From: a virus
Reading direction: 5' to 3' (one strand)
Virus record (IMG/VR): IMGVR_UViG_3300031963_014654
Span: 6,502-70,501 of that record
Length of the DNA stretch: 64,000 nt
The notes below the pieces were generated by a model, which searched no databases, was not told the DNA's origin, and worked only from the letters and a program-made list of their open reading frames with translations. This document shows positions 12,301-54,029 of this stretch, one piece after another (position 1 is the stretch's first letter; every line of letters begins with the position of its first letter). A program made the translations under genes and the position numbers.

Positions 12301-15300
12301 TGTTTAATCCTGATTCGCGTAGTTTACCATAAGCAATAAATGTAAGCACGCTGAAAATTTCTAGCGGACTATTTGTGAATGGCGTAGCTGTTAATGTAAG
12401 TACGTTACGGTTATTGTTGTTTTTAAGGATGTACTGACTAATCATAAATCCTTTTAATGCAATGCTTGATGGTGCTCCACCTGCTTGTATTTGATACGGA
12501 TTTTTTTCGCGATCCTCGCCATTTGATTTCATTTCACCTTTAACGCCAACAAACAACTTTTTCATTTTGTGAGCTTCGTCATAACAAGCAAAATCAAATC
12601 CAAGGTCCTCAATATTGATTAAAGTACCTCTTAATCCTCGTCCAATAAGTGTTTGTAATCGTTCGTAGAACGATGCTTCGCGTTTTTGCCCTGATTTGGA
12701 TGAATAATCAACCGCCTTATCTGGATTTTGATCCAAAATATCATACATTTCGGCAACAATTTGATTTGCTGTGTTTTCGCTAAATCCAATTTGCTCAAAT
12801 CCTTCGTATGTTAATACGGAAATAGAGTTTTCGGGAAGCATTTCAATGTTTCCATCTGCATCTTTTAATTCCGATAAATAATCTTTGCTTAAATTGTAAA
12901 GATCATTAAATTTTACATCTGGGAACAATCCTTTACCTTCTGCCAAAAATTGCTTGTACACTTGGTTTGGCACAACAATAAATGGTCGCTTGCAATAGCC
13001 TGCATCCATAAATTGCTTTATAGCAAATAATGCGCTCCATGTTTTACCAACTCCTACATCGTAGGCAAGGCATCCGCTACCTTCATTCATTAAAAATGTT
13101 ACGGCTTCGCGTTTTTCGGGGCGAATATCTACTACTGAATTGCGGTATTCTTTTGCATGTGCAAATGCTACAGGAATTTTATTGTAATTAACAGGCAAAT
13201 AACCGTTAAAACGCTCATTCCAGGTTGTTTCAATTTTTACAATATCCTCTACATTTAACCATTCAGCTAAGAAAATAGAAAATAATCGATCGCCTTCTTC
13301 TTTTGTAATGTTTAATTTACGTTGCCAAATTGCTTCTGCTTCCTTTTTGTCGACTGGCGTACCATCTTTACCTAATGATGGTCGCTGACCTTGCTGTACG
13401 TAAATTTTAATAATTTCGGCATAGTTTGTATCTTTTTTAATTTGATACTCACCACGGTAATTTACAAGCCAATATTGGAATGCTTCGGTTAATGATAATT
13501 GACTGAACTTTGTTTTTTTCCAATCGCTCATGTGCCCAACATATAAAAAATCGGGCCTACCTGGTTGTTTTCCACCTGCAGGTTGCGATTTCATTTTAAA
13601 TTCTTTACCATCTACCAATGTTTCAATCATAAATGTATTGGCAAACTTACTAATTGGAAGCAATTTTAAACGGTTGTCGAAATTTGCATTGGTAAGTGTT
13701 AATCGCTTATCGTAGCTTATTTTAAACACATTATCCAAAACTAACTTTTGGTTTTCAAAAACTTGATTTCCATACAATTCAATTATGGTTGATTTATCGT
13801 TTTCAAGTGCCGATTTTTTCTCCCAAATGTTCCCTGACAAATATAAATATGCTGGAATTAATGATCCACGGAAATGGAAAACTAAGCCATTGTTAATCCA
13901 ATCTGTTAATGGGCTTGCTCCCATTTGCCATCCGCTTAATTGGTACCATTTATTTGAAAGACGCTCGCCAATTGCTTCCTTATACCAAACAAATACTTGT
14001 AATTCATCTTTTGATATTTCGGGATTGTTTTGGGCAAATACTTGCTCAAATGTAACCATATCGGCATCCAATACAGGATTGCTTGCAACAATTCGTGTAA
14101 CGGCTTTTGTATGTTTTTTAATTTCGCGAATAATTGTTTCTTTGCGTGTCCCTTCCAACGAAGTTTCAATATTTTGCTGTGCTTGTGGATCCTGTAAAAG
14201 TTGGTTTACAGTTTCGTTTTCAGTTGATATTGTTGGATTTTCGGATGCATTAATTTGCATAAAATTTAATGGAGCATCAATACGATTAACGCTATCAATT
14301 TTACCACGGTATTTTGTAACTTCGCCAAAACGCCCACTTGTTTTGTATGGCTCGCCAAGTACTTTATCTGGATTTTGAGCAAACCAATTATCGTTTACAA
14401 GTAAGTTTAATGTATTGGGCTGCTTTGCTTCGCCTGCAGCAACTAATTCCATTGGAGTGTTAAAAAAGTCCTCAATAGGATCGGTTGTAGTATCTGAAAT
14501 TAAAATAAATTTACCATCACCGTATTGATAATATTGTTCCGGAGTAGAAATTCCTTTATAAACTTCAACTTGCTTTCCAAGCATGTTTGAATACCATGCT
14601 TTTGGATTAGCTTCTTTTATCCAAACTTTAAATTTCTCAATTGGCACCCATTTTTCTACTTCTGGCTCTAGTGCTTTTGGCAACTCTGCTGCATTCTCTG
14701 CAAATTCAAAACTATCGGATGTGTTTTTACCATACTTTTTGGCACGTGCATCAAATAAAACAGAATCGGGATGTTCTGCAATATAATCATCTACAATTTT
14801 ATCAAAATCGGTTTGCCAACGATCATCAAACGAAGTATAGATTGATTGTTCTACTCCTGGTGCAATTGGCTTCATTGAAGATTGTGGAACAGGTGTATTG
14901 TATCCTTTAAGCACCAAAATATATGGGCTGTATGTTAATGTGGTGCCACGTGGCGAACGCTTTCCTTTTGGAATAAATGTTACGCTTAATGCTTTTTCGT
15001 ATTGAGCATATTTTTTTGCTTTGATTTTTATATCAGTAACATCTATTTTGTTTATATTTCCCATAAACTCGCTTGCCAAATACATTGTAGCTGGACCGGT
15101 ATATGAAAATTCCATTGGAAGTATTGGTGCGGTTGGTTTTGTTTCTGGCGTTTCTTTTTTTAATATCATGCCATCAATCGGGTTTATTTCCATCCAAACA
15201 TCCGATACTGAATTAGCGGTTTCTTCGTTTATAACGCTTATTATTAAATCTACTCCACCATCCGTTCTATCTATTATAGATTCTTTTATGCCCATATCGG

Positions 15301-36680: not shown

Positions 36681-36701
36681 GGTTTGTTTATTTTTTATTT
36701 G

Positions 36702-36920
36702 TTATTGAGCATCGATAAAATTAACGGAATTAAATCCTATGTTTGGTATTTCTTGAATATACACTACTGTATGCCATCCATCAACTTTGGTAGATTGAAT
36801 TGTGTATTTGCCTCCTACCTTTAAATACTTATTTGCTAATTCGGCTTCGGGTTCATTACCATTGTTAATTGATTCTTTTGTTACAATTACTTTGTGCCCT
36901 TGTTTTGCGTATATGTTCAT
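36702..36920 (-). CDS. Hypothetical protein
   Basis: Likely start MNIYAK; -7 element TATATTTG at 36942-36949. Confidence 0.6.
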   Translation of the reverse strand: MNIYAKQGHKVIVTKESINNGNEPEAELANKYLKVGGKYTIQSTKVDGWHTVVYIQEIPNIGFNSVNFIDAQ

Positions 36921-38420: not shown

Positions 38421-38822
38421 TTATTGTTCTCTATATTTGCTTAATAGCTGTTCAAACTTTATTCCTTCATCAACATTTCCATCTGACTTTTGATACCATA
38501 AACCATTTGCTCCTTTTATCCAATATCCAGCATCAATAAAATCAGCAAAATCCTCCATTTCATTGTTTTTTTTTACTGAATTTTCTTCTGCTCCCTTTTT
38601 TATAGTAATACTTGTTAATCCTGGAGTACCATCATCTGTCCATGTAAATTCTTCCATAACTGCAAATGAAGGATTTTCGCCTGTTTGTTGTTTGTATGCT
38701 TGTTTCAACGTTACAGCCAAACTCAAGCATTCCGATAAATCCGTTAAAAACAAATCTATATTATCTTTTGTTACTGCATTTACTGCATCGGCTACTGTTT
38801 TAATATTGTATTTTTTTGCCAT
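38421..38822 (-). CDS. Hypothetical protein
   Basis: 133-aa ORF. Confidence 0.55.
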   Translation of the reverse strand: MAKKYNIKTVADAVNAVTKDNIDLFLTDLSECLSLAVTLKQAYKQQTGENPSFAVMEEFTWTDDGTPGLTSITIKKGAEENSVKKNNEMEDFADFIDAGYWIKGANGLWYQKSDGNVDEGIKFEQLLSKYREQ

Positions 38823-38827
38823 TTTTT

Positions 38828-39070
38828 TTAATTATTGTTTTTACGATGTATAAAGCAATTTTGTGTTTCTATTTGGCATGTATTTGGAATAAATGCTACA
38901 GGTTTGTTGAATTTGGAGCATGTTCCATAATTGCAGCGATGCGATGCTTTTAATTGCCCTTGGTGCAAATGGTCGAATGATTTCATTTTTTCAAAATCGC
39001 GGACCATAAAAGCACAATCGTTGCAATTGCAATCTATGAGCTGCAATTCATACAAACTATTTTTATCCAT
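38828..39070 (-). CDS. Small Cys-rich protein
   Basis: DCNCNDC..YGTC..PNTCQ..CF. Confidence 0.6.
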   Translation of the reverse strand: MDKNSLYELQLIDCNCNDCAFMVRDFEKMKSFDHLHQGQLKASHRCNYGTCSKFNKPVAFIPNTCQIETQNCFIHRKNNN

Positions 39071-44040: not shown

Positions 44041-44685
44041 TTAACCTTTATTTATGTTTTTACGAATATAGAACTTATCTCCCCAATGGCAATCGGTCAT
44101 TTTGCATTCGGCTGCTTCAAATCCATGTTCGGATAAAAAAGCATCAATTTCATGTACCAATGCACAACCTTTGTAAAGCTCCTGATCATTAACTTCGGTA
44201 TAAATGTAATTTATGTGCTTTAGGTTATTTTCCATGCCTTTTAATGCAAGCAATTCGGCACCTTGAATATCTATATTCAAAAAATCGTAATACTCCATAT
44301 CAATGCATCCATGTTCAATTATATCATCTGCGGTGATGGTAATCATTTCAATTGATTGCACATTTTGAACGGAAGGATGGTATTCCAAATGCTTATCGAG
44401 TGGCAAAAAGGATGAAGATTCGCCATTATTGTTGGTAATGTTGAATGTAACTGATTGAAGTGATTTATCACTTACACATGCTTGTATTGCAAATGCATGT
44501 GGGTTTGATTCGATGTGTTTTTGAAGTTGTTCGAAAATTTCGGGGATTGGTTCAATCCAAATTTGATTTTCAACTCCTTTATCCAGGTATTGTTGTGCCT
44601 CCTGCCCTGTATTGGCACCAATATGGAATACACCCTTGGGGCGTATTCCGTATTTATCTATAAGTGTTGCGAATGGTATAAGCAT
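44041..44685 (-). CDS. FkbM-family methyltransferase
   Basis: GVFHIGANTGQE, WIEP, SSSFL, FLNIDIQGAEL.ALKG, YTEV, WGD. Confidence 0.9.
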   Translation of the reverse strand: MLIPFATLIDKYGIRPKGVFHIGANTGQEAQQYLDKGVENQIWIEPIPEIFEQLQKHIESNPHAFAIQACVSDKSLQSVTFNITNNNGESSSFLPLDKHLEYHPSVQNVQSIEMITITADDIIEHGCIDMEYYDFLNIDIQGAELLALKGMENNLKHINYIYTEVNDQELYKGCALVHEIDAFLSEHGFEAAECKMTDCHWGDKFYIRKNINKG

Positions 44686-45083
44686 TATTTTTGCTCTCCT
44701 TTCATCATTTTTGCTGCTACAGCAAAAAATTCGCCTTTATCAATTGTAATTGATTGATTTTGGATTTCGTGCATTTTTTGTAAGATAATGTTAAAATCAC
44801 CAGAAACATTAATTTTGCAATCGTTTGCTTCGTTTAATTCAAATGATACACGTGCGGTAATTTTTGGACCGGATTGCATTTGACTTTCTCTAATTTTTTG
44901 TTCCAACTTTTCACTTTCTGCACCTGCAGTTCTACCGTGCAAATATGCTCCAATAATTTTTTTATCGGTTTCGGATGGTGCTGTTGGTTTAAATATTTTT
45001 ATTGATTTTTCTTTCGAAACACTTTTTGATTTACCTGCAGCCTTTTGGGGTGCTGTTTTTTTTGTGGTTGCTTTTTTTGCCAT
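44685..45083 (-). CDS. Hypothetical protein with basic N-terminus
   Basis: 132-aa coupled ORF. Confidence 0.55.
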   Translation of the reverse strand: MAKKATTKKTAPQKAAGKSKSVSKEKSIKIFKPTAPSETDKKIIGAYLHGRTAGAESEKLEQKIRESQMQSGPKITARVSFELNEANDCKINVSGDFNIILQKMHEIQNQSITIDKGEFFAVAAKMMKGEQK

Positions 45084-45087
45084 GATT

Positions 45088-45822
45088 TTATTTTTGTTTA
45101 TAGGTTTGAATTAATTGATTGATTTTTTCGGTATAATTTTTTGTATTGAAATGACTATTTGCATGAATGCGGTGGTCCACTAACTTTTGGTTTATGTTAG
45201 TGAATTTAGCATCGGTATAACGCATAATGCGTAGCCATAAATCATAATCTTCTATTCCATCAAGTTCGGGATTGTATGGAAATTGTTCCATTAAATTGGC
45301 ACGAATAAGTGCGCTGCAATTTACAATTGGGTTGTGGCCATTGTAGGCATCTTCTACTATTTTATCGTGCAAAAATGGGCGTGGGCGTGGATTTATTTCT
45401 ATTTCTTTGCTTTGTGCATCAATATAATAACAATCGGTACCAATAACATCGTATGCATTGGCGTATTTTAATTGTTCTTCCAGCTTTGTTGGATGCCATA
45501 CATCATCTGCATCTTGGATTGCAAACCATTGTGCTTTTGGAAGCGAATATAAATTTTCTGAATATTGTAGTAGCAAATTAGATATAAAATTTAATGCATC
45601 TGATTTATTATCACAAGTTCCCATTGTAAAATCTTTAATTTTACCTGGATTATTTAAACGATATTCATCAACAATTTTTTGAGTATTGTCGGTGCATCCG
45701 TTTAACGCAACAATAAGATTAAAATTTTGGTGGGTTTGGTTTAGAACGCTTTCAATAGCTTGCCTAATGTAGCGTTCGCCATTACGAACCGCTAAAAGCA
45801 CATATACATGATTATTTCCCAT
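45088..45822 (-). CDS. Glycosyltransferase family 2
   Basis: VRNGERYI..AIESVLNQT, GCTDNT, IQDADD..KLE.Q, EDYDLWLR; likely start MGNNH at 45822. Confidence 0.9.
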   Translation of the reverse strand: MGNNHVYVLLAVRNGERYIRQAIESVLNQTHQNFNLIVALNGCTDNTQKIVDEYRLNNPGKIKDFTMGTCDNKSDALNFISNLLLQYSENLYSLPKAQWFAIQDADDVWHPTKLEEQLKYANAYDVIGTDCYYIDAQSKEIEINPRPRPFLHDKIVEDAYNGHNPIVNCSALIRANLMEQFPYNPELDGIEDYDLWLRIMRYTDAKFTNINQKLVDHRIHANSHFNTKNYTEKINQLIQTYKQK

Positions 45823-45907
45823 TTTTTGTTTGTAAATTTTAGGCAATATTAAACCTTTATTTGTAATATGCAAACTTTATTTTAATTTACTTATTAACAA
45901 TTAAATG

Positions 45908-46696
45908 TTAATTACGGTAATAATTGGTTCCTTTTGCTGCTTTATCTTTATCTACAAATATAATTTTGGGCGTAAATGGTGGTTCTATTGCCCAACGCTG
46001 TTTAATGTATTCTTGGTTTTCCATCCAAAGTTCGTACATGTATGGGTTAAGTTTACCAGGTTCGTGCTCGCAATAATGGTAGGTTGGTGGTAGAATTTTC
46101 ACCAAAGGTTCATTATTACACACAAATTTATTAATTGCTGATTCATCGTGCCAAATTGGTGTAATTCCAGCAAATTTATCGTTTTGAATGTATAAAAACA
46201 TTAATGCGCACATAGCTTTAAAATTATACGTTTGACCTCCATAAAATCCGCCTCCTACATAGATTGTTGGCTTGTGAGCAAAGCATGATGAATTGGCGTT
46301 TGTTTCGAATGGTGCTGCATCTGTTCTGTTTATGTATGCGCCATGTGCAACACAAACAATATGGTGCTTACATATTAAAGGAGTGATTTCGGAAGCAAAA
46401 TAAGCATCGGCATCTATTGCAAAACAATGTGTAAATTTTTCGTAGTGATTAAAATCGGAAAGGTATTTTGAATAAAAATACGAACGCCACATGGATGCTT
46501 CTGGGAATGGCTTATGCTCTACTTCGATGTATTCAATATCTCTTTTTGTTTCGGGCAAAGGTGTTGCTATATCGGAAACAAATATAACGTAAACAACTTC
46601 CTGCTGTGGCAAAAAATATTGATCGGCCGATTCGATTAATTTTGGAAGAAACTCGGTGTATTTGCCGGTTGCTGTAATAAATAGTGCTATTTTCAT
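45908..46696 (-). CDS. Family 6 glycosyltransferase (ABO/alpha-1,3-Gal(NAc)T-like)
   Basis: IALFITATGKY..F, FAIDAD, PFE, YVGGGFYGG, WHDESAINK. Confidence 0.85.
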   Translation of the reverse strand: MKIALFITATGKYTEFLPKLIESADQYFLPQQEVVYVIFVSDIATPLPETKRDIEYIEVEHKPFPEASMWRSYFYSKYLSDFNHYEKFTHCFAIDADAYFASEITPLICKHHIVCVAHGAYINRTDAAPFETNANSSCFAHKPTIYVGGGFYGGQTYNFKAMCALMFLYIQNDKFAGITPIWHDESAINKFVCNNEPLVKILPPTYHYCEHEPGKLNPYMYELWMENQEYIKQRWAIEPPFTPKIIFVDKDKAAKGTNYYRN

Positions 46697-47253
46697 TTTA
46701 TTAAAGAAAGTGTTTTTGGTATTCCGTTTTTAAAAAAGAATGTAGTAGTCCAACCTGTATAAGTAAATCCGTATTTGTCGGGTTCGTGTTGGTATGTTTC
46801 TATTCGTTGAAAACTATTCATTAAATTTTTTCCTGGTGCATAATACTCGCGTTCGGAATTATCCAATATTAAAACTCCATTTTTGGCTAAATATGGCAAT
46901 GCGGATTGAATACATGCTGCACGATTGCGCCCATCTACCAAAATAATATCGTATTTATCCCCAATTTTAGCTGCTTCGGCAATAGCATCGTGGTAAGATT
47001 GCTCCCTGCGCATTAACATACCATCTTGAGGCTTTGCTAAAAAACTTTTAGCTTGTTTGGTAATCTCATCCCACCATTGTGTATCGTGCTCCACAGAATG
47101 CAGCACTTTTACATTTTTTTGCTTTAAAAACCAAATGGTGCTTGCTCCCATTCCGTATTCGAAAATACGCAAATCTTTGCCATTATCAATTATTTTTTGA
47201 AGTATTCGATTAGCTTCTTCGGTAAGCCATGGTTCGGTGCGTAGTTGGTCCAT
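46693..47253 (-). CDS. Class I SAM-dependent methyltransferase
   Basis: PWLT, IFEYGMGASTIW, SVEHD..W, YDIILVDGRNR, GVLILDNS. Confidence 0.85.
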   Translation of the reverse strand: MDQLRTEPWLTEEANRILQKIIDNGKDLRIFEYGMGASTIWFLKQKNVKVLHSVEHDTQWWDEITKQAKSFLAKPQDGMLMRREQSYHDAIAEAAKIGDKYDIILVDGRNRAACIQSALPYLAKNGVLILDNSEREYYAPGKNLMNSFQRIETYQHEPDKYGFTYTGWTTTFFFKNGIPKTLSLIK

Positions 47254-48091
47254 TTGAGTTTAAATTTATATGTGATATTGGAGTTTGTATTTTGCTAATT
47301 GTATTGTGGCTCAAATGTAAGTAAATATTTGTTGTTTTTACATTGTTGTGCCCTAATAATCGTTGTATTAAATTAATATCTGTACCATATTCTACCATGT
47401 GCGTAGCACTTGTGTGGCGAATAAGGTGAGCATATATTCGCTTATTGCAAATTCCGGCTTTATCGGCCAATTGTTTTAAAACTTGGTTTACGCTGCTTTC
47501 GGTATATTGAATATCAAATTGGCCATTTAACACATACGTTTGGGATTTGTATTGATAATAATATGTTTCCAACAATTTTATTAAATCGGGATCAAGTGGA
47601 ACTTGCCTATCTTTTTTGCCTTTTGCTTGAATGATATTTATTATCATTCTACTACGATCAATGTGTTGCCATTTAAGGTTTATTAATTCGGAAACACGTA
47701 AGCTGCAGGAGTAAAGTAGCGATAATATTACTTTGTGCTTTAGGTTTGCACATACATCAAACATTTTTTGTATTTCCTGTACCGACAAAACGATTGGTAA
47801 TTTTTTGTCTTTTTTAGAAAAAGGAATTTTTTCTAATTTAATGGGCATTCCAACTGTTATTGAATAAAAGGATTTTATTGCACATAGTTTATGGTTACGT
47901 GTATTTATTGTTGGAAACGTTAATAGCCATTCTTTAATTTTTTGCGTTGAAATTGCTTTTGGCTCTGTTTCGCTGCTAAAATATTTTAAGAATGTTCCAA
48001 CCGAACACAAATAGTTTTCTTGCGTTCGCTCACTTGGATATTTTAACTTACAATCTGTCGAATATTTATCATACCATTTTCGAAATTCCAT
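47210..48091 (-). CDS. Tyrosine recombinase (candidate non-canonical integron integrase)
   Basis: Intact R-K-HxxR-H-Y set: LRVSE, AKGKKDR, HLIRH, LLGH, TNIY; N-terminal SAM-like YPSERTQENY. Confidence 0.92.
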   Translation of the reverse strand: MEFRKWYDKYSTDCKLKYPSERTQENYLCSVGTFLKYFSSETEPKAISTQKIKEWLLTFPTINTRNHKLCAIKSFYSITVGMPIKLEKIPFSKKDKKLPIVLSVQEIQKMFDVCANLKHKVILSLLYSCSLRVSELINLKWQHIDRSRMIINIIQAKGKKDRQVPLDPDLIKLLETYYYQYKSQTYVLNGQFDIQYTESSVNQVLKQLADKAGICNKRIYAHLIRHTSATHMVEYGTDINLIQRLLGHNNVKTTNIYLHLSHNTISKIQTPISHINLNSNGPTTHRTMAYRRS

Positions 48092-48130
48092 TTTGGACCT
48101 CCTTGTTTTATTGTTGTTTTAGACTGTTTT

Positions 48131-48150
48131 ATCTATATAGTAGTTAGGTG
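48131..48150 (+). other. attI-like primary recombination site (G|TTAGGTG at 48143)
   Basis: GTT core about 50 bp upstream of the recombinase start; the sequence after it is the reverse complement of CACCTAAC at the other end of cassette 1. Confidence 0.6.
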
Positions 48151-48181
48151 CAAGTTTTAAAACCCTACCCACCTGTGTTTA

Positions 48182-49042
48182 TCAAACTAAGTGGTTAAAA
48201 ATGTGTTCTATTACAGGTACAGTCCATCCGTTTCCTAGTAAATGGTATCTTTTACCACTTGCCACACCATTTGTATAATCTAAAGTAACCCCTTGTAATA
48301 TCTCACACTCATTTTCTGTTAATTTTCTAAGCCCTTTTTTCATCTTAACTATATTAGTAGCTGACCTATCGCATCTAAACGAATGTGGTGTTATGCAATT
48401 AGCTCTATTGTATTTTATTGATTTATTATAAAAATCAACAACTTCAATAGTATTTCCACTTTCTAAATATCTACAATTATCGTAATGTTTTATCTGATGT
48501 TCTTTACAGTAATATTTTTCATCTACATTTTCTAACAATACATTATCTATATAATATTGCTTAGTTATTATGTTTTCTAAAGGAATATTTGTCCAATAAT
48601 ATCTTTCTCTATTTTGTGCGGTAAAATTATTTGAATTTATTAAAACGCCTTTTACTCCTAAAAAATTATCTAAATCCAATTTACTTTTTTCTTTCATTTT
48701 TACATTTTCTAATAAAAAGTATTTAGGATTAGTTTCTTTTAAAATTCTTAGGTATTCATAAAATAGTTTTGATTTATCACCGTCTAATTCCTTACGTTCA
48801 AATTTTAAACTTGAAAAATCCTGACAGGGTGAGCCTCCAATAAGTAAATCAATTTTAGGTAAATCAATTGACTTTACATCAATAACGCTTCCGATATGTT
48901 TTGTATTTGGATAGTTTTTTTTAGTTATGAAAATAGCATCTTTATCAATTTCACTCGCAAAATAATTATCTACTTTGATTCCTAAATTATTTAAAGCTAT
49001 TTGTCCACAACTCATTCCATCAAATAAACTAAGTACATTCAT
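48182..49042 (-). CDS. C5-cytosine DNA methyltransferase (cassette 1)
   Basis: SLFDGMSCG, GGSPCQ, LLENV, QNRERYYW, LGNGW. Confidence 0.92.
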   Translation of the reverse strand: MNVLSLFDGMSCGQIALNNLGIKVDNYFASEIDKDAIFITKKNYPNTKHIGSVIDVKSIDLPKIDLLIGGSPCQDFSSLKFERKELDGDKSKLFYEYLRILKETNPKYFLLENVKMKEKSKLDLDNFLGVKGVLINSNNFTAQNRERYYWTNIPLENIITKQYYIDNVLLENVDEKYYCKEHQIKHYDNCRYLESGNTIEVVDFYNKSIKYNRANCITPHSFRCDRSATNIVKMKKGLRKLTENECEILQGVTLDYTNGVASGKRYHLLGNGWTVPVIEHIFNHLV

Positions 49043-49106
49043 TTTGTTTTAATTTTAAATTATATGTTTTACATTCCAATTTGCACTCCTTCGTTTTAAA
49101 ACCAGA

Positions 49107-49163
49107 CACCTAACCGCACCTAATAAACAGCAAGCCGATTTATTAGCTGCAAACCGTTAGCAG
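49107..49163 (+). repeat. attC-like site 1
   Basis: CACCTAAC..gcacctaataaa/tttattagctgc..aaaccGTTAGCAG. Confidence 0.75.
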
Positions 49164-49169
49164 AAAGCA

Positions 49170-49871
49170 CTACACTACTGCTAAAATTGAACTTTCGATT
49201 ATTTCTTGACATAATTCTTTTGGTATTTTTGAACGGTTAAAACTTCCTTTTTTGCCTTGCGTTCCTGTTTTCGATCCTCTTGGTGCAGGTTGATGATGAC
49301 AATTTTTGTTTCCGTTGTGGCACATTGGTCTTGGTTGCCATACTTCGCTATTTGTCCATATATCCGTTGGCTTTGCTCTATCGTCGCCATAAGTACAATA
49401 CCAAACCGTATGCCTTTTAAATCTTTGCATAAATGGCATTTTACGCATCATTCCTCTTGGGTTTTCAATAAAGAATACCATTTTAGGATTAATCAAAAGC
49501 CATTCATCGATTAGGCTAATAAAGTGTTGGTTTACTGCATCGCATTTTTTAGCGTATTCGCTTTTTGGATCTGTTCCATTTCGGTGTGTGCTTATTGCTG
49601 CAATAGTGTAAGTTGTGCAATCAGGAGAAGCCCAAACAACATCTGGAATAAATGGCACATCTTTAGTTTGTAATTCTTCAATATCAATGGCTAAATCTAT
49701 TTTATCAAACTTTTGCCAATCAATACTAAAAACATTCATCCCTTTTGCTTCGGCTACACTTCCAACGGATCGAGAACCAGCGAATAATTCTACTAAATTA
49801 CCCGTGCCATCTGCTAACATCGGTTTGGCAAAATTGCCGTTTGGTGCTTCTATTGAACTTTTATCTATCAT
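49170..49871 (-). CDS. C5-type DNA methyltransferase, divergent (cassette 2)
   Basis: ELFAGSRS, VWASPDCT, FIENP, YCTYG..KPTDIW, RSKIP. Confidence 0.8.
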   Translation of the reverse strand: MIDKSSIEAPNGNFAKPMLADGTGNLVELFAGSRSVGSVAEAKGMNVFSIDWQKFDKIDLAIDIEELQTKDVPFIPDVVWASPDCTTYTIAAISTHRNGTDPKSEYAKKCDAVNQHFISLIDEWLLINPKMVFFIENPRGMMRKMPFMQRFKRHTVWYCTYGDDRAKPTDIWTNSEVWQPRPMCHNGNKNCHHQPAPRGSKTGTQGKKGSFNRSKIPKELCQEIIESSILAVV

Positions 49872-49938
49872 TTGAACATTTGTTTTTTAATTAAACTTTT
49901 GGGAACGGCAACTTCGCCAAGCCGATAACCGTTATGTG
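49811..49938 (+). repeat. attC-like site 2
   Basis: CTGCTAAC + 23-bp arms atcggtttggcaaaattgccgtt/aacggcaacttcgccaagccgat + aaccGTTATGTG. Confidence 0.8.
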
Positions 49939-49942
49939 CCAT

Positions 49943-50467
49943 TTAAAGAGCGACACTACTCTCAACTTCATTGCCCCAAACATCCCAACCATCGGGTTTT
50001 ATTCGGGCAAATAGTTCAATCCTGTCTTTTCCGAAAATCTCTATCATCTCTCTTATCTCTTTTGGTTTTTCTGAATGTCTTAATTTTTTTGAACTTATCT
50101 GAATAAGTGTTGGTATAGTTTTCCGTTTTGGGAATTTAGGTAAATTACCTTTTCTGCCAACTAATAGAAATTCAGTTCTGTGATGGAATCCGTATAAGCA
50201 CAATCCATTCATTTTATCCCAAGTAATAGTTCTTTGATAGTTAAATCCCCATTCTTCCATAACTTCAAATGCTTGTCTTAAATATCCTTGTGTTGTCCAC
50301 AAAAACAAAATACTATCATCTTTTGCCAACATTTCCACATTCAAATTTTTTATATCCTCTATTTTCATCATCGGATATGAATGTTCTATCTGATTTGGTC
50401 TTGTTTTTCTTTTAAACATTTTTACATCCCAAGCAGGGTCGGCATATATTACATCGTATTTCTTCAT
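49943..50467 (-). CDS. MT-A70-family adenine methyltransferase (cassette 3)
   Basis: YDVIYADPAW, LFLWTT, WGF.Y, TEFLL, HSEKP, IELFAR, GWDVWGNE. Confidence 0.9.
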   Translation of the reverse strand: MKKYDVIYADPAWDVKMFKRKTRPNQIEHSYPMMKIEDIKNLNVEMLAKDDSILFLWTTQGYLRQAFEVMEEWGFNYQRTITWDKMNGLCLYGFHHRTEFLLVGRKGNLPKFPKRKTIPTLIQISSKKLRHSEKPKEIREMIEIFGKDRIELFARIKPDGWDVWGNEVESSVAL

Positions 50468-50497
50468 ATTTCTAAATTAAATTCGTAAATAAAAAAC

Positions 50498-50595
50498 GGC
50501 ACATAACACGGTATATAAGCAAGTTTGCCATTAAGTTTGTGGGTAATTTGAAACATTCTGCAAGGCAAACCTGCTCATATACCCATCCGTTATAT
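50498..50595 (+). repeat. attC-like site 3
   Basis: GGCACATAAC + 20-bp arms ggtatataagcaagtttgcc/ggcaaacctgctcatatacc + catccGTTATAT. Confidence 0.8.
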
Positions 50596-51009
50596 CCCCT
50601 TAATCAAATCGGCTACATTTTTCCAATCATTTGGTGATGCTGTGCTTTTGTTTTTATATAATTGGCGCAATACATTTAAAGTGTTATTAACCCTATCTTT
50701 TTTGGTATTATTGCTTTCATTATTTTTAACAGGCAAATTATCTGTTAAATCCCATTCTATGCAAATTCTACCGGTAACGCTGCATTTCTTTTCACCTTTT
50801 TCATAAATAACGCCTAATTCTCTTAACTCTGTGAACCTTGCTCTTGCTTGTGAAAAAATATTTTTCGAATTTAAACTATTTTGCATTGCCTCCGAACTTG
50901 TGCAAGGAGCATGTTGATATATCAATTCATAAACTTCTAGCCTGCGTTTTGTAAGCAAACCTTCGTTTTTTATTTGATTGTAACAATCAATGGATGTTTG
51001 TCTTGCCAT
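50590..51009 (-). CDS. Winged-helix-like DNA-binding protein
   Basis: VYELI..PCTSSE..RARFTELRELGVI....KC.VTGR. Confidence 0.6.
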   Translation of the reverse strand: MARQTSIDCYNQIKNEGLLTKRRLEVYELIYQHAPCTSSEAMQNSLNSKNIFSQARARFTELRELGVIYEKGEKKCSVTGRICIEWDLTDNLPVKNNESNNTKKDRVNNTLNVLRQLYKNKSTASPNDWKNVADLIKGI

Positions 51010-51013
51010 TTTT

Positions 51014-51313
51014 TTATTTATTTTGATTGTTATTTTTCATTTCGGCCATTTCGTTAAGTTTTTGCTGGAACTTACTTACTTTTAATACCTTTTTTGGCGT
51101 TTCTGTGGCTGCAGGTTCATTTTCTTGTTCCTGGTTAATTTTCCATACATAGTATGTTTTAAAATCGCTATCGGAAGTATTTAGTATGTTGCACCAAAAT
51201 TGAGCAATCCATTTGAACTTGAATTTTGTTGGATTGTGATTTTTGGGCTTACAAAACAACCAAAAACGTACTGATCCGTATGTGAATATTCCGTTGTATT
51301 TTATTATGTGCAT
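51014..51313 (-). CDS. Hypothetical protein
   Basis: 99-aa ORF. Confidence 0.5.
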   Translation of the reverse strand: MHIIKYNGIFTYGSVRFWLFCKPKNHNPTKFKFKWIAQFWCNILNTSDSDFKTYYVWKINQEQENEPAATETPKKVLKVSKFQQKLNEMAEMKNNNQNK

Positions 51314-51331
51314 ATTTTACAATTTTTATAT

Positions 51332-51460
51332 AAAAACAAAGCATCCCGAAACGGCTAGGTAAACAATAGTGGAAATGGGAAACCACACATGAAAACCATC
51401 GCCAATTTCGGGATGCTTCTTATTTCGTTACAGTTCAAATTTCCCATTTTTTGAATGTTT
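51332..51460 (-). ncRNA. Structured leader RNA or attenuator candidate containing a 30-codon ORF (51355..51447)
   Basis: 13-bp perfect inverted repeat aagcatcccgaaa/tttcgggatgctt around 54 nt, followed by a T-rich tract; directly downstream of promoter 51469-51499. Confidence 0.45.
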
Positions 51461-51468
51461 AACCGTGG

Positions 51469-51499
51469 CAAATATAATGGTTTATTTTATACTTGCAAA
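51469..51499 (-). promoter_or_regulatory. Bacteroidota-type -33/-7 promoter
   Basis: TTTG-N19-TATATTTG. Confidence 0.75.
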
Positions 51500-51661
51500 T
51501 TTATTTTATAAACACTTATGCCATGCCCGATTTTTTCAAATCAAGCTCATACTGCAATTTGCGGTATTTGTGGCCTTGGTGTATATTCCAAATGCTTAAT
51601 GCAAAAAATGCTACTGTTAGCAATGTAATTGCTGTTTGCATTCGTTTATGTTCGAGTAAAT

Positions 51662-51901
51662 TTACCATCTTTTTGCTGGGCAATATTGTTTTTTTAATGT
51701 TTGCTTTTCACTTAATATACAACCACATAATTTTATTACTTTGCCATTGTAATTAACATAGTTACCTGTTATTGGTGTTCCGCACCATTTACCATTTTTG
51801 AAGCTACATGTATTGCATTGTGCTTTACGAAAATTAATAACGGCTTGACTTGCTAATTCATCATTAGTAAGTACTTTAACTATGTTGGCTATTGTTCCCA
51901 T
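51662..51901 (-). CDS. Small Cys-rich protein
   Basis: R..QCNTC..CG..CGC.L..K......CP..RW. Confidence 0.65.
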   Translation of the reverse strand: MGTIANIVKVLTNDELASQAVINFRKAQCNTCSFKNGKWCGTPITGNYVNYNGKVIKLCGCILSEKQTLKKQYCPAKRW

Positions 51902-52133
51902 TGCGGCTTTTCTTTTCGGCTTTGCGTTTGCTTAAATAGCTAAATAACGATGCAACAGCAACACTACTACCTGCCAACAGTCCTACATCTTTAATTATTA
52001 CGCCAATAAATTCGGCAACTTCAGTTGATTCGGGAATATTTATCATAGCAATTAAGCCTGTGGTAATTGAACTTAACAATCCAGATACTCCAGGATGCTC
52101 AATTATTGCATTGGCAAGTTGTTTAAAAATCAT
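51876..52133 (-). CDS. Two-TM membrane protein (holin-like)
   Basis: Likely start MIFKQL at 52133; two hydrophobic helices and a basic tail. Confidence 0.55.
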   Translation of the reverse strand: MIFKQLANAIIEHPGVSGLLSSITTGLIAMINIPESTEVAEFIGVIIKDVGLLAGSSVAVASLFSYLSKRKAEKKSRNGNNSQHS

Positions 52134-52154
52134 ATTTTTGTTTTGCGTTTGATG

Positions 52155-52186
52155 CAAAGTTAAGTATTTTTTTATTTGTTTACAAA
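52155..52186 (-). promoter_or_regulatory. Bacteroidota-type -33/-7 promoter
   Basis: TTTG-N20-TAACTTTG. Confidence 0.7.
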
Positions 52187-52492
52187 TATTTCGTAAATGG
52201 GCACCAAATCAACAGATAATTTGTTTTCGTCATTTATTTTTTTTAACCCTTCGCGAATTTCGTTTAATTCTAATTCACTAAATTCTATTAAAAAAGTTGC
52301 TTTTGATCCTTTTTCGTTCCATCTTAATTGTGGTCCAAATTCAGTTATTTCAAAATCTTTTAATTCTTTTTGTGTTAATTGGCATTTTTTTGTAATGTCT
52401 TTATTGATAATCATTTGTGAGTAATTACCTTCTTTTTTCAATACGCCTGGAATCATTAAACGATCCAACAATGTTAATTTGATTTTTTTCAT
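52172..52492 (-). CDS. Hypothetical protein
   Basis: 106-aa ORF. Confidence 0.6.
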   Translation of the reverse strand: MKKIKLTLLDRLMIPGVLKKEGNYSQMIINKDITKKCQLTQKELKDFEITEFGPQLRWNEKGSKATFLIEFSELELNEIREGLKKINDENKLSVDLVPIYEIFVNK

Positions 52493-52515
52493 TTTTTTTG
52501 GTTTTTTATTTATAA

Positions 52516-52734
52516 TTAATAATTTTTAAAACTATCTTCTTTTTCTTCCATATTAGCCCACTCTATTCCTTTTTCCTTTATTTTACCGGTTTGTTTTTCA
52601 ATAGATATGGATTCATCAATTTTTTTATTGAGCTTGTTTTCTTCCAACCAATCCTCAAGATGCTTTTCGTTTTCAAACAATTGGCTCCCATTCATTCCTT
52701 CTGGTGGATTTGGTATTGTTAATAGTATTTTCAT
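52516..52734 (-). CDS. Hypothetical protein
   Basis: 72-aa ORF. Confidence 0.5.
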   Translation of the reverse strand: MKILLTIPNPPEGMNGSQLFENEKHLEDWLEENKLNKKIDESISIEKQTGKIKEKGIEWANMEEKEDSFKNY

Positions 52735-52736
52735 TG

Positions 52737-53303
52737 TTATTTTTTAGTTAAAATAAAATGTAAATCATCAACTACATTCCAATAATGACTGCCTGCAAAT
52801 TGCTTTGCCTCTAATGATCGTGCAACCCAATTACCATTAACTGCTTCGCCAACAACATAATCAAAATCGCATTTAACATTGTAATGGTCTAATTTATTTA
52901 CTTCTCTCCATGCTTTGTTAAAATACAATACAGTTTGTGCTGGAATAAATCTACGATGTGTTGGATCTTGAAATGCTCTTGTACTTGTACAGTTTGGGAA
53001 AATTAATGTTACTTTGCCTCCTGGTTTTAAAATTCGGTAGCATTCATCAATAAATGCAAATAGTTTATCTTTTCCATTTATAAACTCCATGGGAATATGT
53101 TCAATAAAATGTGATGAAAATATTTCATCTACCGTATTATCTTCGAATGGATAAGGGAAGTTGTTAAACAAATCGTGTTTAATATCACAATCGCCTGCTA
53201 TATCAACGCCAATAAATCCTGGTTGCTTGTTTTGGCCACATGCTAAATCAACTCTTAATGGACCTTCTGGTTGTACTGTTTTAATGCTTTTTTTCTTTGT
53301 CAT
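52737..53303 (-). CDS. SAM-dependent methyltransferase (type 11-like)
   Basis: VDLACG, GVD, PFEDNTVDEI.SSHFIEH, ECYRILKPGG, DPTH. Confidence 0.9.
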   Translation of the reverse strand: MTKKKSIKTVQPEGPLRVDLACGQNKQPGFIGVDIAGDCDIKHDLFNNFPYPFEDNTVDEIFSSHFIEHIPMEFINGKDKLFAFIDECYRILKPGGKVTLIFPNCTSTRAFQDPTHRRFIPAQTVLYFNKAWREVNKLDHYNVKCDFDYVVGEAVNGNWVARSLEAKQFAGSHYWNVVDDLHFILTKK

Positions 53304-53315
53304 ATTTTTTTATTT

Positions 53316-54029
53316 TTACCAAGTTATATCTGAATTTAAGTCATAATGACCTACTTTAACCGAACAATCTATTGCGCAACGGTATCCATGTTTTCGAGCA
53401 TCGGCCCAAAAATATAAATCTTGCGTTCCAATACCTTGCCCTTCAATGCCTGTTAATGTTTTGAACCATGGCCTTCTTAGGTTTGAATCTTTAAACATTG
53501 ATATTCTCCATAAATTAAAGCCCATGCCTGTTCCGCAGCATTCAACTAATCCGCCATTAATATCTGGTGGTTGTGGTCTAAAATTTATGTTTGGATCTTT
53601 TGCATCGCCCCATATTTGTGGCACGCCTCCTTCTCCTTTGGTCCAATACAATCCTCCAATACATGATAAATGTGGATTTTTTTCCATTGCTTGTATTAAT
53701 CGAAGTAAACCATCTGCAGGTGGAATATTATCATGTTCAATTGTTAGTATGTATTCCCATTGCGATAATTCTGGATGTGATAATACTTGCTCTATTGCAG
53801 ATGAAAATGCCTCGCCTACTTCCAATCCAATAGCAGCCATTTTAAATGAACCGTTGTTTGGTGGAAACATTAATGAGCAATGCGATAAATAAACTTTTGT
53901 TGGAATTGTTTTTGCGGCTGGAATAATCATTACAACACGTTGTTGTTTCCATGAACCGCCTTCAATTATTCTTTTTTGTGAATTAACAAGATTTTGATTG
54001 TGAATCCCACTTTCTATTCCTACTATCAT
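53316..54029 (-). CDS. Glycosyltransferase (GT2-like)
   Basis: YILTIEHDN, IGGLY, GMGFNL..F, PWF, QDLYF, VKVGH. Confidence 0.75.
   Translation of the reverse strand: MIVGIESGIHNQNLVNSQKRIIEGGSWKQQRVVMIIPAAKTIPTKVYLSHCSLMFPPNNGSFKMAAIGLEVGEAFSSAIEQVLSHPELSQWEYILTIEHDNIPPADGLLRLIQAMEKNPHLSCIGGLYWTKGEGGVPQIWGDAKDPNINFRPQPPDINGGLVECCGTGMGFNLWRISMFKDSNLRRPWFKTLTGIEGQGIGTQDLYFWADARKHGYRCAIDCSVKVGHYDLNSDITW

Follow-up and report, generated by a model that had tools for sequence, protein, structure and literature searches.

Our main finding is that the analysed viral DNA (hereafter the window, i.e., the whole stretch of 64,000 nt) carries a recombinase gene, an adjoining junction and a set of hairpin sites that together most probably (roughly 0.78) constitute an integron-type gene-capture platform of Bacteroidota phages. 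Under this reading, a cassette would comprise one hairpin site together with one or more genes downstream of it on the coding strand. Cassettes would be excised and inserted by site-specific recombination, possibly via circular intermediates, with the neighbouring recombinase as the likely catalyst and the crossover placed within a 4-nt core, i.e., TAAC on the recombinase-coding strand and GTTA on the + strand of the window. New cassettes would enter at an attI-like junction beside the recombinase gene. The substrate would be a folded single strand, like the bottom strand of attC, and this strand would be marked by a one-sided internal loop and two conserved G.T wobbles that replace extrahelical bases. 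Viewed on the + strand, the layout is that of an integron: the recombinase gene is directed away from the primary site, with the cassettes beyond it and each of them ending in a GTT-core site. Respective positions are provided in Table 1.

Table 1. Predicted platform elements and neighbouring features (positions refer to the window).
Feature	Position	Strand	Details
Xer/XerA-like tyrosine recombinase, 293 aa	47210..48091	-	based on Pfam, NCBIfam, PDB alignments and catalytic residues
Primary site, attI-like	48092..48152	-	reads ...TTGCACC-TAAC, then TACTATATAGA...; core TAAC 48146-48143
Cassette 1, adjoining recombinase	48143..49159	-	site A, then C5 cytosine DNA methyltransferase 48182-49042
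Hairpin site A	49111-49159	-	13 pairs
Cassette 2	49156..49934	-	site B, then DNA methyltransferase 49170-49871 (phrog_757, 1.4e-26)
Hairpin site B	49815-49934	-	22 pairs; arms 49926-49904 and 49841-49819; loop 62 nt; inverted repeat I4
Cassette 3, distal	49931..50592	-	site C, then MT-A70 N6-adenine DNA methyltransferase 49943-50467 (Pfam MT-A70 2.6e-29)
Hairpin site C	50504-50592	-	stem 20-21 pairs; fold -16.1 kcal/mol, z = -2.9
Distal array boundary, backbone half-site GGGGATA-TAAC	50589..50598	-	overlaps stop codon of gene 50590-51009
GC-rich 13-bp-stem hairpin, then TTTGTTTTT	51339..51418	-	fold -22.7 kcal/mol, z = -3.7

Up to position 50592, the window shows the system-level features of an integron, with a primary site next to the recombinase gene and an array of cassettes, each bounded by a palindromic site. 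Sites A, B and C are all located upstream of the recombinase gene and on the same strand. Our site finder asks for TAAC, 0-6 nt, a stem of at least 13 pairs (at most one mismatch, no gaps), 0-6 nt and GTTA; all remaining matches within the 64-kb window have at most 12 pairs. The finder assumes the TAAC/GTTA core, while the comparison of blocks between loci L011 and L009, the comparison of Freya phages and the structure-blind alignment of sites, all reported below, are independent of it.

The core of the primary site is found 51 nt from the ATG of the recombinase gene, and the 6 nt preceding its TAAC are those of the last cassette. Cassette 1 is delimited by this core and the one at 49159-49156; its methyltransferase matches Pfam DNA_methylase with 4e-39. 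The ORF of cassette 2 begins inside the loop of site B; a second possible start, the ATG at 49820, overlaps with the GTTA core. Concerning the cassette ends, the flank GTTAGCAGAT of cassette 2 agrees with the reverse complement of TTCTGCTAAC at 9/10 positions, and the flank GTTATGTGCC of cassette 3 is the exact reverse complement of GGCACATAAC. No partner GTTATATCCC was found upstream of the distal half-site. An equivalent backbone half-site, GATAGATAAC, is present in the homologous loci L011, L009 and L008. The stretch 48092-48181 had also been considered as a hairpin site and was rejected; it shows no fold (z = +0.4) and represents the primary-site junction.

Next, we evaluated the arrangement in a sample of 80 viral contigs encoding homologues of the recombinase. 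The original prediction, made from the window alone, had expected that homologues flank such hairpin arrays, and this is what we observe: 113 sites are found within 351,115 nt upstream of the recombinase vs. only 4 within 523,821 nt downstream. Among the 63 loci with at least 1 kb of upstream sequence, 49 have one or more upstream sites. The other 14/63 are without TAAC sites; some of them show CAAC sites and others none.

Consecutive sites are linked by a flank rule, i.e., the 6 nt following GTTA, read as reverse complement, equal the 6 nt that precede the next TAAC. Using a threshold of at least 5/6 matching positions, the rule holds for 33/53 consecutive pairs vs. 161/5000 random pairings, and the window's own pairs reach 6/6 and 5/6. 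The two flanks of a single site, on the other hand, match at chance level (2.2 vs. 2.0 of 6). That is, cassettes end in inverted 10-mers, which is an integron signature. Most of the 20/53 pairs that fail the rule are more than 900 nt apart, such that sites may have been missed. Given the counts of upstream and downstream sites and of flank pairs, a chance origin of the sites is excluded.

The junction is conserved as well. The motif AAC-N2-5-AT[ACT]T[AG]T is present in 44/51 unique upstream regions compared to 55/2000 control windows, and 35 of the motif-bearing regions have its AAC at a distance of 51-52 nt to the ATG. The window itself carries the variant TATATAGA, which is outside this regular expression and is shared (by eye) by loci L003-L005. 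The junction flank and the flank of the last site are complementary to each other in 18/30 loci. Distant relatives of the recombinase (31-33% identity; Leef_1, Freya) are accompanied by (C)AAC...GTTG/GTTA sites that obey the flank rule. As judged from these sequences, the core co-varies with the recombinase lineage. Among 32 cellular and archaeal loci that are more distant than the 80 viral ones (L082-L113; AAC/GTT finder, at least 14 pairs), 24 are without any match and three (L083, L095, L096) have upstream sites.

Comparison of related loci shows that the cassettes are discrete and mobile with crossover at the conserved core, as is also reflected in the flank rule. Loci L011 and L009, whose recombinase regions are 98.8% identical, share three blocks whose order is reversed. 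A TAAC marks the start of two of these blocks, and neighbouring blocks have an overlap of 4-5 nt at one boundary and of 29 nt at the other. The array of L008 is a wholly different one, located between the same two boundaries. Among cultured Polaribacter phages, Freya_10 equals Freya_1 plus an array of about 4.9 kb placed exactly at the junction, between ...TGTTTACAAC and ACCCCTATAAC..., i.e., 47 nt before the integrase gene; the content of Freya_6 differs at this point.

For the window, tblastx against L002-L081 as well as L082 and L083 identified only the recombinase and homologues of the methyltransferase cassettes as shared parts, such that none of these loci represents a close relative of this particular phage. 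Public metagenome contigs, which are mixed-population assemblies that include relatives at 90% identity, diverge from the window at 49156 (one run, X12), 49931 (three runs) and 50585 (two runs). When considering 24 loose contig ends (with 177 more beyond these), 6 are at most 7 nt away from the GTTA cores of sites A, B and C, with up to three runs per site, and the summed depth peaks in the bins that hold the sites. Some contig joints skip whole ORFs (e.g., 49943 to 50492); they have short sides with unknown letters in between and are left out of consideration.

We also studied the structure of the sites. Sites A-C share bulge-free stems, the invariant TAAC...GTTA core and an asymmetric internal loop. 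The latter had been described beforehand as an asymmetric spacer of 0-2 nt after AAC and 4-5 nt ending in CC before GTT, and it is found in this form, i.e., on the + strand 1, 0 and 2 nt follow AAC and AAACC, AACC and CATCC precede GTT at the three sites. The accompanying claim that the sites lack extrahelical bases stands with regard to the stems, which are without bulges, while strand-specific irregularities (two conserved G.T wobbles and the one-sided internal loop) take their place. In a structure-blind alignment of 53 sites, the TAAC/GTTA pairs are invariant and 11/17 pairs show compensatory changes. Two G.U pairs are kept in 52/53 and 51/53 sites, respectively. Within the stems, G.T outnumbers A.C by 218 vs. 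96 and is the more frequent of the two in 73/98 sites vs. 6. A site thus most likely acts as a folded single strand, namely the recombinase-coding one. The best-folding strand is at the same time the mRNA strand, and several loops contain a start codon, such that the G.U bias could also stem from a role at the RNA level (e.g., termination, processing or control of translation).

The recombinase ORF, which contains ...KGKKDRQVPLDPDLIKLLETYYYQYKSQTYVLNGQFDIQYTESSVNQVLKQLADKAGICNKRIYAHLIRHT..., encodes an N-terminal SAM-like core-binding domain and a catalytic domain (Phage_int_SAM_4; Pfam Phage_integrase 2e-36). Both the RKHRH/Y residues and the two-domain layout of simple tyrosine recombinases are present in the 293-aa protein. 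The residues R132, K157, H222, R225, H248 and Y257 are invariant among 24 aligned homologues (276-293 aa, 303 columns), and with regard to these residues the protein is catalytically complete. Its about 16 C-terminal residues extend past the ends of the homologues and overlap the next gene. The best NCBIfam match is XerA_Arch, and the archaeal XerA structures 5hxy and 4a8e align in a single stretch. None of the Xer equivalog cut-offs is reached, i.e., scores are 184.5 vs. 220 bits for XerA_Arch, 156 vs. 329.6 for XerD and 151.9 vs. 335.15 for XerC.

Canonical IntI carries an extra I2-helix insertion that is said to read the extrahelical bases of single-stranded attC. It had been proposed that the recombinase of the window lacks this insertion and that tools relying on IntI profiles would miss it. 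Both expectations agree with our results, the latter with regard to TIGR02249, PRK15417 and the 2a3v alignment. The alignment with 2a3v (Vibrio cholerae IntI4) is split into query 16-173 / chain 15-176 and query 197-274 / chain 243-319, with 23 query residues vs. 66 IntI residues in the gap between these blocks. The integron-integrase profile TIGR02249 is matched at positions 10-177 and 239-314 only, leaving 178-238 without counterpart. The recombinase remains below the respective cut-offs (149 vs. 265 bits for TIGR02249, 74 vs. 435 for PRK15417), while true IntI, found in 91/251 genomes, score 270-509 bits. An IntI-type insertion is also absent from all 24 aligned homologues. According to these alignments, the recombinase lacks the IntI-specific insertion of about 40-60 residues.

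The same proposal had placed the enzyme in a separate or ancestral lineage. In a quick IQ-TREE search (LG+G4) including 18 IntI rows, all from gammaproteobacterial genomes, IntI is monophyletic (support 100) with the phage clade outside. The latter (support 100) is nested in a Bacteroidota-associated group (support 99). Separateness is thereby supported, while ancestry is not borne out because the tree does not settle the branching order of IntI, archaeal XerA-like proteins and the Bacteroidota-associated group. The lineage may have arisen independently, or it may be a relative of IntI's Xer-like ancestor that has survived.

We compared these observations with other explanations. In PHROGs and by the depositors of related cultured phages, the recombinase is labelled an integrase, from which Bartlau et al. 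conclude that such phages are temperate. Since the hairpins directly follow stop codons, belong to the mRNA strand and allow G.U pairs, one could consider the enzyme an ordinary lysogeny integrase or a dimer/concatemer resolvase and the hairpins unrelated terminators or RNA elements between early genes. We regard this as very improbable. Terminators explain neither the invariant TAAC/GTTA core, the inverted 10-mers and the fixed 51-52 nt junction nor the exchange of blocks at core breakpoints. Close relatives also seem to be rare in cellular genomes, which would not be expected for a lysogeny integrase: among the best 80 of at least 592 matches, 2 exceed 60% identity, both on metagenome-assembled genome contigs, while viral contigs gave 134. 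A second role of the recombinase in integration or resolution may nevertheless exist. Similarly doubtful is a scenario in which the cassettes are real but moved by host IntI, host XerC/D or short-homology recombination, with the neighbouring recombinase as a bystander. It would be in line with phage P12002L, which has arrays of such sites while no recombinase gene is annotated in its record and our recombinase finds no match at E <= 1e-20; that is, the enzyme can act in trans, be lost or be dispensable. Furthermore, Qi et al. (2023, PMC9892861) report that IntI1 recombined an attC site of P12002L in vivo, and cassette shuffling in phages, for which short-homology recombination has been proposed, is described for the PeSL elements of T4-type phages (PMC2839356, PMC4122927). 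On the other hand, the overlaps of 4-5 nt and 29 nt between exchanged blocks, whose hairpins are otherwise unlike, offer little length for homologous recombination. The sites show a polarity towards the recombinase gene and reach as far as a junction of fixed distance, the core changes along with the recombinase lineage, and the 18 IntI sequences of the tree are gammaproteobacterial and form a clade of their own.

A less distant alternative keeps both platform and enzyme and assumes duplex recombination as done by Xer at dif. Here, TAAC/GTTA would be binding half-sites, and the hairpin would serve another purpose, e.g., cassette expression. The stems are free of bulges, and the enzyme is Xer-like and without the IntI element said to read extrahelical bases, which is in line with this view. 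Still, we consider duplex recombination unlikely. The conserved wobbles together with the excess of G.T over A.C point to selection on one folded strand. In addition, the stem sequence varies freely while pairing is kept (the 11 covarying pairs), where a duplex binding site would conserve its sequence. The folded single-stranded genome of CTX phage is integrated by host XerCD, i.e., there is a precedent for a Xer-type enzyme using a hairpin, and gene modules flanked by pdif sites exploit Xer recombinases too. The proposed capture platform shares with Xer recombinases the two-domain architecture without an arm-binding domain as well as the top profile and structure matches (XerA and XerD). It differs in that its recombinase clade is phage-borne, apart from XerC/XerD on the tree and below all Xer equivalog cut-offs, and in that its hairpin sites measure about 49 to 133 nt (main size classes), in contrast to the 28-bp dif sites.

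With regard to integrons, which are in practice defined by IntI and its extra domain such that detection tools require it, the likeness is extensive. Both have a recombinase gene directed away from the primary site with the cassette array beyond, and both have imperfect-palindrome cassette sites with AAC...GTT cores, where the crossover takes place, which results in hybrid sites and complementary cassette ends. In both, one strand folds better, which corresponds to the attC bottom strand, the cargo varies widely and is for the most part without known function, and recombinase genes without an array resemble In0. The phage platform differs by its recombinase, which is without the IntI insertion, below the TIGR02249/PRK15417 cut-offs and outside the IntI clade. 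Furthermore, its sites show the one-sided internal loop and conserved G.T wobbles instead of extrahelical bases, its cassette genes run towards the recombinase, each preceded by its site, and the platform is phage-borne.

A search of the literature found no description of the system. PeSL shuffling is said to proceed by recombination between repeated motifs, with no dedicated recombinase involved. As in the phage arrays studied here, the variable genes of T4-type phages are flanked by repeated stem-loops and shuffled as modules (PMC2839356, PMC4122927); the present platform is set apart by its recombinase, its primary site and its 4-nt crossover core. The CALINs that Qi et al. (PMC9892861) reported in phages are attC clusters without an integrase. 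Their carriers include Polaribacter phage P12002L with its methyltransferase cassettes, and around its methyltransferase genes we find sites of the same form that obey the flank rule. The difference is that here a dedicated Xer-like recombinase and a primary site adjoin most arrays. Qi et al. used IntegronFinder and HattCI for their search; they reported no associated integrase for these phages, and the term "Xer" is absent from their main text.

Finally, we investigated the cargo. ORFs of the arrays cover 74.4 of 93 kb on the + strand vs. 18.3 kb on the other strand, and the 145 unique ORFs fall into 128 families. Pfam annotation of 144 representatives identified 16 DNA methyltransferases in addition to TAGT, Tad3, Lar and deoxyribosyltransferases. 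That is, DNA methyltransferases are the most common among the cassette ORFs with a Pfam match, and a few match anti-defence families. Based on the identifiable cargo (DNA methyltransferases, DNA-modification enzymes, a Thoeris inhibitor and Lar), the platform would swap counter-defence genes, and the annotations suggest such an exchange as its role.

We somewhat favour the more specific view that Bacteroidota phages carry their own integron-type capture system based on a Xer-like lineage that never acquired the IntI insertion. If true, recombination of a folded hairpin cassette site needs no IntI-specific domain, and "orphan" phage attC clusters have a cognate integrase that is invisible to current integron finders. 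In that case, counter-defence genes are also traded as cassettes between phages on the time scale of single isolates. A second recombinase lineage running such a platform in phages would widen what counts as an integron and would offer a natural test of the enzyme and site features needed for hairpin-site recombination. It would also provide a candidate enzyme for the phage attC clusters reported without integrase and reveal a phage route for swapping methyltransferases and other counter-defence genes. The idea can be tested directly, since carriers are in culture (Polaribacter phages Freya and Leef). As a caution for annotation, a small phage "integrase" need not signal lysogeny.

No Rfam family was found at permissive thresholds within 42-54 kb, and a simple terminator scan reported none at the sites and fewer terminator-like sites than in shuffled sequence. 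A generic repeat finder did not reveal the array, as it is structure and a 4-nt core, not sequence, that the sites have in common. The GC-rich hairpin listed last in Table 1 was considered as a fourth site and rejected, since it ends in GTTT instead of GTTA and its flanks match no cassette. It folds equally well on either strand and is probably an ordinary terminator outside the array.

The locus appears, judging from its sequence, to be an integron-type cassette platform of a phage with a Xer-like recombinase that is not IntI. It belongs to a viral metagenome record of 70.5 kb (estimated complete), whose bases 6502 to 70501 form the window, with a G+C content of about 33% and almost all genes on the minus strand. 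When folded on the minus strand, the regions between the three methyltransferase genes form long stems. Our pattern finder, which requires TAAC and GTTA around a stem, reports three sites of 13 to 22 ungapped pairs in the window and no other match of more than 12 pairs in the 64 kb scanned. The original prediction of hairpin arms without clear bulges and with asymmetric spacers is borne out, i.e., the stems are ungapped and the spacers on the plus strand are as first described.

Features of the locus (window positions unless a locus is named)
Feature	Position	Strand	Remark
phrog_1123 gene	50590-51009	-	
Hairpin site C	50504-50592		
MT-A70 DNA methyltransferase	49943-50467	-	
Hairpin site B	49815-49934		
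Second DNA methyltransferase	49170-49871	-	phrog_757
Hairpin site A	49111-49159		
C5 cytosine methyltransferase	48182-49042	-	
Junction (attI-like primary site)	48092-48152	-	TAAC at 48146-48143
Recombinase	47210-48091	-	Phage_integrase + SAM-like domain
Overlap of recombinase tail with next gene	47210-47253		
Gene next to recombinase	46693-47253		
Sugar- and methyl-transferase block	44041-47253	-	
Hairpin rejected as site	51339-51418	-	upstream of ORF 51014-51313
2792-aa single ORF	9332-17710	-	
Shared block	L011 6421-6759		= L009 2702-3040
Shared block	L011 6756-7090		= L009 1513-1847
Shared block	L011 7062-7400		= L009 1179-1517
A/T-rich repeat (D11/D15 families)	38793-38836		with 53274-53317
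A/T-rich repeat (D11/D15 families)	36683-36723		with 52494-52534

The association of recombinase and sites was evaluated for 80 viral loci with recombinase homologues, each oriented by its recombinase. Here, 113 sites are found within 351 kb upstream of the recombinase compared to 4 within 524 kb downstream, such that the homologues are associated with hairpin arrays. At least one site is present in 49/63 loci having at least 1 kb of upstream sequence; the largest array comprises nine sites (L011), while the densest shows seven within 2.3 kb (L034). Within 1 kb of the recombinase, a contig end is present on the upstream side in 18/80 loci vs. 4/80 on the downstream side, as expected of assemblies across a hypervariable, repeat-bearing region. 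A further 32 loci, cellular and archaeal (L082-L113), carry more distant homologues, including Bacteroidota ones of about 32-46% identity; 24 of these loci are without any site match and only three (L083, L095, L096) have sites upstream of the recombinase. L096, a Melioribacteraceae MAG contig (homologue of 44% identity), carries three sites of about 124 nt and L083, a Saccharimonadales MAG contig (65% identity), two of about 85 nt; either contig may represent a prophage or a phage contig that was placed in the MAG by binning.

The recombinase combines a Phage_integrase catalytic domain (2e-36) with an N-terminal SAM-like domain. Its best curated profile is archaeal XerA (184.5 bits, cut-off 220), and it scores 156 bits for XerD (cut-off 329.6), 152 bits for XerC (cut-off 335) and 149 bits for the integron integrase TIGR02249 (cut-off 265), such that every score is below its cut-off. 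With the XerA structures 5hxy and 4a8e it aligns in a single stretch, and with Vibrio cholerae IntI4 (2a3v) in two, where 23 residues are placed opposite 66 IntI residues. Since this alignment is split and TIGR02249 is covered at profile positions 10-177 and 239-314 only, the IntI-specific insertion is absent, as had been claimed. Nor does it occur in any of 24 aligned homologues, all of which retain the catalytic residues R, K, H, R, H and Y. The ORF is 293 aa long (276-283 aa in homologues), and its C-terminal extra tail shares 44 nt with the start of the next gene.

More than 5000 relatives are found at E < 1e-20. A tight clade of 54-81% identity stems almost wholly from viral contigs; with one genome per species (185,579 species), 2 among the best 80 of at least 592 matches exceed 60% identity. 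We computed a quick maximum-likelihood tree (73 rows, 293 columns) from 18 true, gammaproteobacterial IntI (91/251 genomes had a match above the cut-off), XerC, XerD, archaeal and Bacteroidota relatives and 24 phage sequences. Therein, IntI is monophyletic (support 100), XerC and XerD form one group (99), and the phage recombinases are a monophyletic clade (100) nested in a Bacteroidota-associated group (99). The tree settles no branching order among IntI, the archaeal XerA-like proteins and the Bacteroidota-associated group. With the phage clade outside a monophyletic IntI, the phage recombinases represent a separate lineage, in agreement with the original prediction.

Next, we consider the structure of the sites. 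About half of the 102 unique sites are around 125 nt long; the rest mostly measure about 50-95 nt and a few 160-180 nt. We aligned 53 sites of the 125-nt class with MAFFT and folded them with RNAalifold without fitting. In the resulting structure, TAAC pairs invariantly with GTTA (four pairs), the fifth pair is G.U in 52/53 sites, and there is an internal loop with the 5' side being the longer one. The stem comprises 12 pairs, with compensatory double changes at 11 of them, and a second G.U is retained in 51/53 sites. When the finder scores G.T and A.C alike, the stems contain 218 G.T vs. 96 A.C, with G.T commoner in 73 and A.C in 6 of 98 sites. This bias argues for selection on the structure of one strand, namely the recombinase-coding one. 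Extrahelical bases are absent from the sites; obvious candidates for strand markers are the one-sided loop and the wobbles.

Within the integron frame, i.e., taking the window's plus strand as top, the recombinase-coding (folded) strand is the bottom strand and the crossover core is its 5' AAC, the position at which IntI cleaves attC. The folded strand is also the mRNA strand, and the hairpin structure may therefore have a role at the RNA level. In many 125-nt sites (e.g., L004:2689-2825) an ATG lies in the loop, and translation from it would turn the 3' arm, together with the GTTA core, into the N-terminus of the cassette protein. At 49815-49871 of the window, ATGTTA provides an alternative start that overlaps with the core. 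The site seems to be interwoven with the start of the gene.

That the hairpin-bounded units are cassettes is indicated by three independent lines, namely flanks, junction and comparisons made without the finder. With regard to the flanks, the 6 nt after GTTA are the reverse complement of the 6 nt before the next TAAC in 33/53 consecutive pairs (at least 5/6 matching) vs. 161/5000 random pairings, and the two flanks of a single site match at chance level. For the window itself, these pairs are GTTATGTGCC/GGCACATAAC and GTTAGCAGAT/TTCTGCTAAC. Such complementarity is expected if a circularised cassette were to rebuild a site with a 10-bp paired base, the crossover taking place in the 4-nt core, and cassettes of integrons are defined by the same pattern. 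Furthermore, arrays terminate at a conserved junction, nnnnnnTAAC|TAYTATATGTA, found in 44/51 unique upstream regions vs. 55/2000 control windows. In 35 of these 44 regions, 51-52 nt separate the AAC of the junction from the recombinase ATG downstream of it, and in 18/30 loci the variable 6 nt before TAAC are complementary to the last hairpin site's flank. The window's junction reads ...TTGCACC-TAAC|TACTATATAGA, with 51 nt to the ATG.

Independent of the finder, we compared L011, L009 and L008, whose backbones are 91-100% and recombinase regions 98.8% identical. L011 and L009 have three blocks in common, in reversed order. Two of these blocks begin exactly at a TAAC, and the third begins 9 nt ahead of one. 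Neighbouring blocks share 4-5 nt at one boundary and 29 nt at the other. Each block comprises a site and the gene downstream of it, and L008 holds an unrelated array inside the same two boundaries. A repeated unit in L034 keeps its 3' flank and changes its 5' flank, which likewise shows the unit to be a site plus its downstream gene.

No close recombinase homologue was found in cultured phages. The wider recombinase family is represented by annotated 'integrases' in the Polaribacter phages Leef_1 (33% identity) and Freya_1 to Freya_10 (31%), upstream of which (C)AAC...GTTG/GTTA hairpin sites follow the same flank rule. Freya_1 and Freya_10 are identical on either side of a point located 47 nt ahead of the integrase gene (...TGTTTACAAC|ACCCCTATAAC... 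in Freya_1), exactly where Freya_10 carries a cassette insertion of about 4.9 kb; at the integrase-proximal point, the content of Freya_6 differs again. Given these differences, cassettes are gained and lost at the recombinase-proximal junction among isolates of one phage species. In its passages on the integrase gene, the Freya/Leef paper (PMC8776804) takes it solely to indicate a temperate lifestyle.

We also mapped public metagenome contigs from four runs on window positions 45000-53500. Their points of divergence include 49931 (three runs), 50585 (two runs; continuing ...CCGTTA|GCACCC), 49156, 49163 and 49936, i.e., positions no more than 7 nt from the GTTA cores of sites B, C and A, and their summed depth peaks in the bins holding the three sites. 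Since the assemblies represent mixed communities, we take this only as supporting evidence for cassette mobility.

The ORFs of the arrays cover 74.4 of 93 kb on the recombinase strand vs. 18.3 kb on the opposite strand, and the 145 unique ones (at least 60 aa) fall into 128 families. A Pfam scan of 144 representatives finds no family in more than 7 ORFs. DNA methyltransferases account for 16 ORFs (7 N6_N4, 5 C5, 3 Dam, 1 MT-A70) and PAPS-reductase-like proteins for two; TET-associated glycosyltransferase, nucleoside deoxyribosyltransferases, the Thoeris inhibitor Tad3, Lar, YopX and a few more families occur as single examples. The window's array consists of three cassettes with a DNA methyltransferase in each. 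One array ORF (alignment A2 of cassette ORFs, loci L002-L081) matches Phage_integrase and the SAM-like domain and would be a second recombinase gene inside a cassette array.

Our full-text literature searches found no description of an integron-like phage platform with a Xer-like recombinase. The nearest work, Qi et al. 2023 (PMC9892861), applied IntegronFinder and HattCI to 10,705 phage genomes. Its sections on these genomes report 17 attC clusters without integrase, two methyltransferases in the cluster of Polaribacter phage P12002L, and in vivo recombination of one P12002L site by IntI1. In the P12002L genome we find many sites of the same form as the window's, e.g., GTTAGGCACT...methyltransferase...TTGTGCCTAAC, and no integrase gene is annotated in its record. 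Observation and inference of the original prediction outlast both refutation tests, i.e., match to an integron-integrase profile (TIGR02249) and homologue-array association. Platform architecture and cassette mobility emerge from the sequences compared, and we infer the recombinase to be the catalyst, its substrate to be single-stranded and the intermediates to be circular. That recombinase and sites form one working system is given a probability of about 0.78.

The hairpin upstream of ORF 51014-51313 was rejected as a member of the site family. It is a strong hairpin whose GC-rich stem of 13 bp encloses a structured loop of 54 nt, with TTTGTTTTT coming after it, and it resembles an intrinsic terminator in which the loop is unusually large. 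The block directly downstream of the recombinase encodes an FkbM-type methyltransferase, family 2 and family 6 glycosyltransferases and a SAM methyltransferase, an unusual set of glycan- or DNA-modification genes for a phage, which is found in none of the loci compared (viral L002-L081 plus L082 and L083). A single ORF of 2792 aa is located elsewhere in the window. Summed metagenome contig depth also peaks at 52384-52667 and 53236-53500 (83 and 38 vs. about 8 elsewhere), and contigs diverge at 52475-52520, too. Finally, short A/T-rich intergenic sequences immediately before gene starts recur at other positions of the window (D11/D15 repeat families) and may be a shared promoter or leader element.
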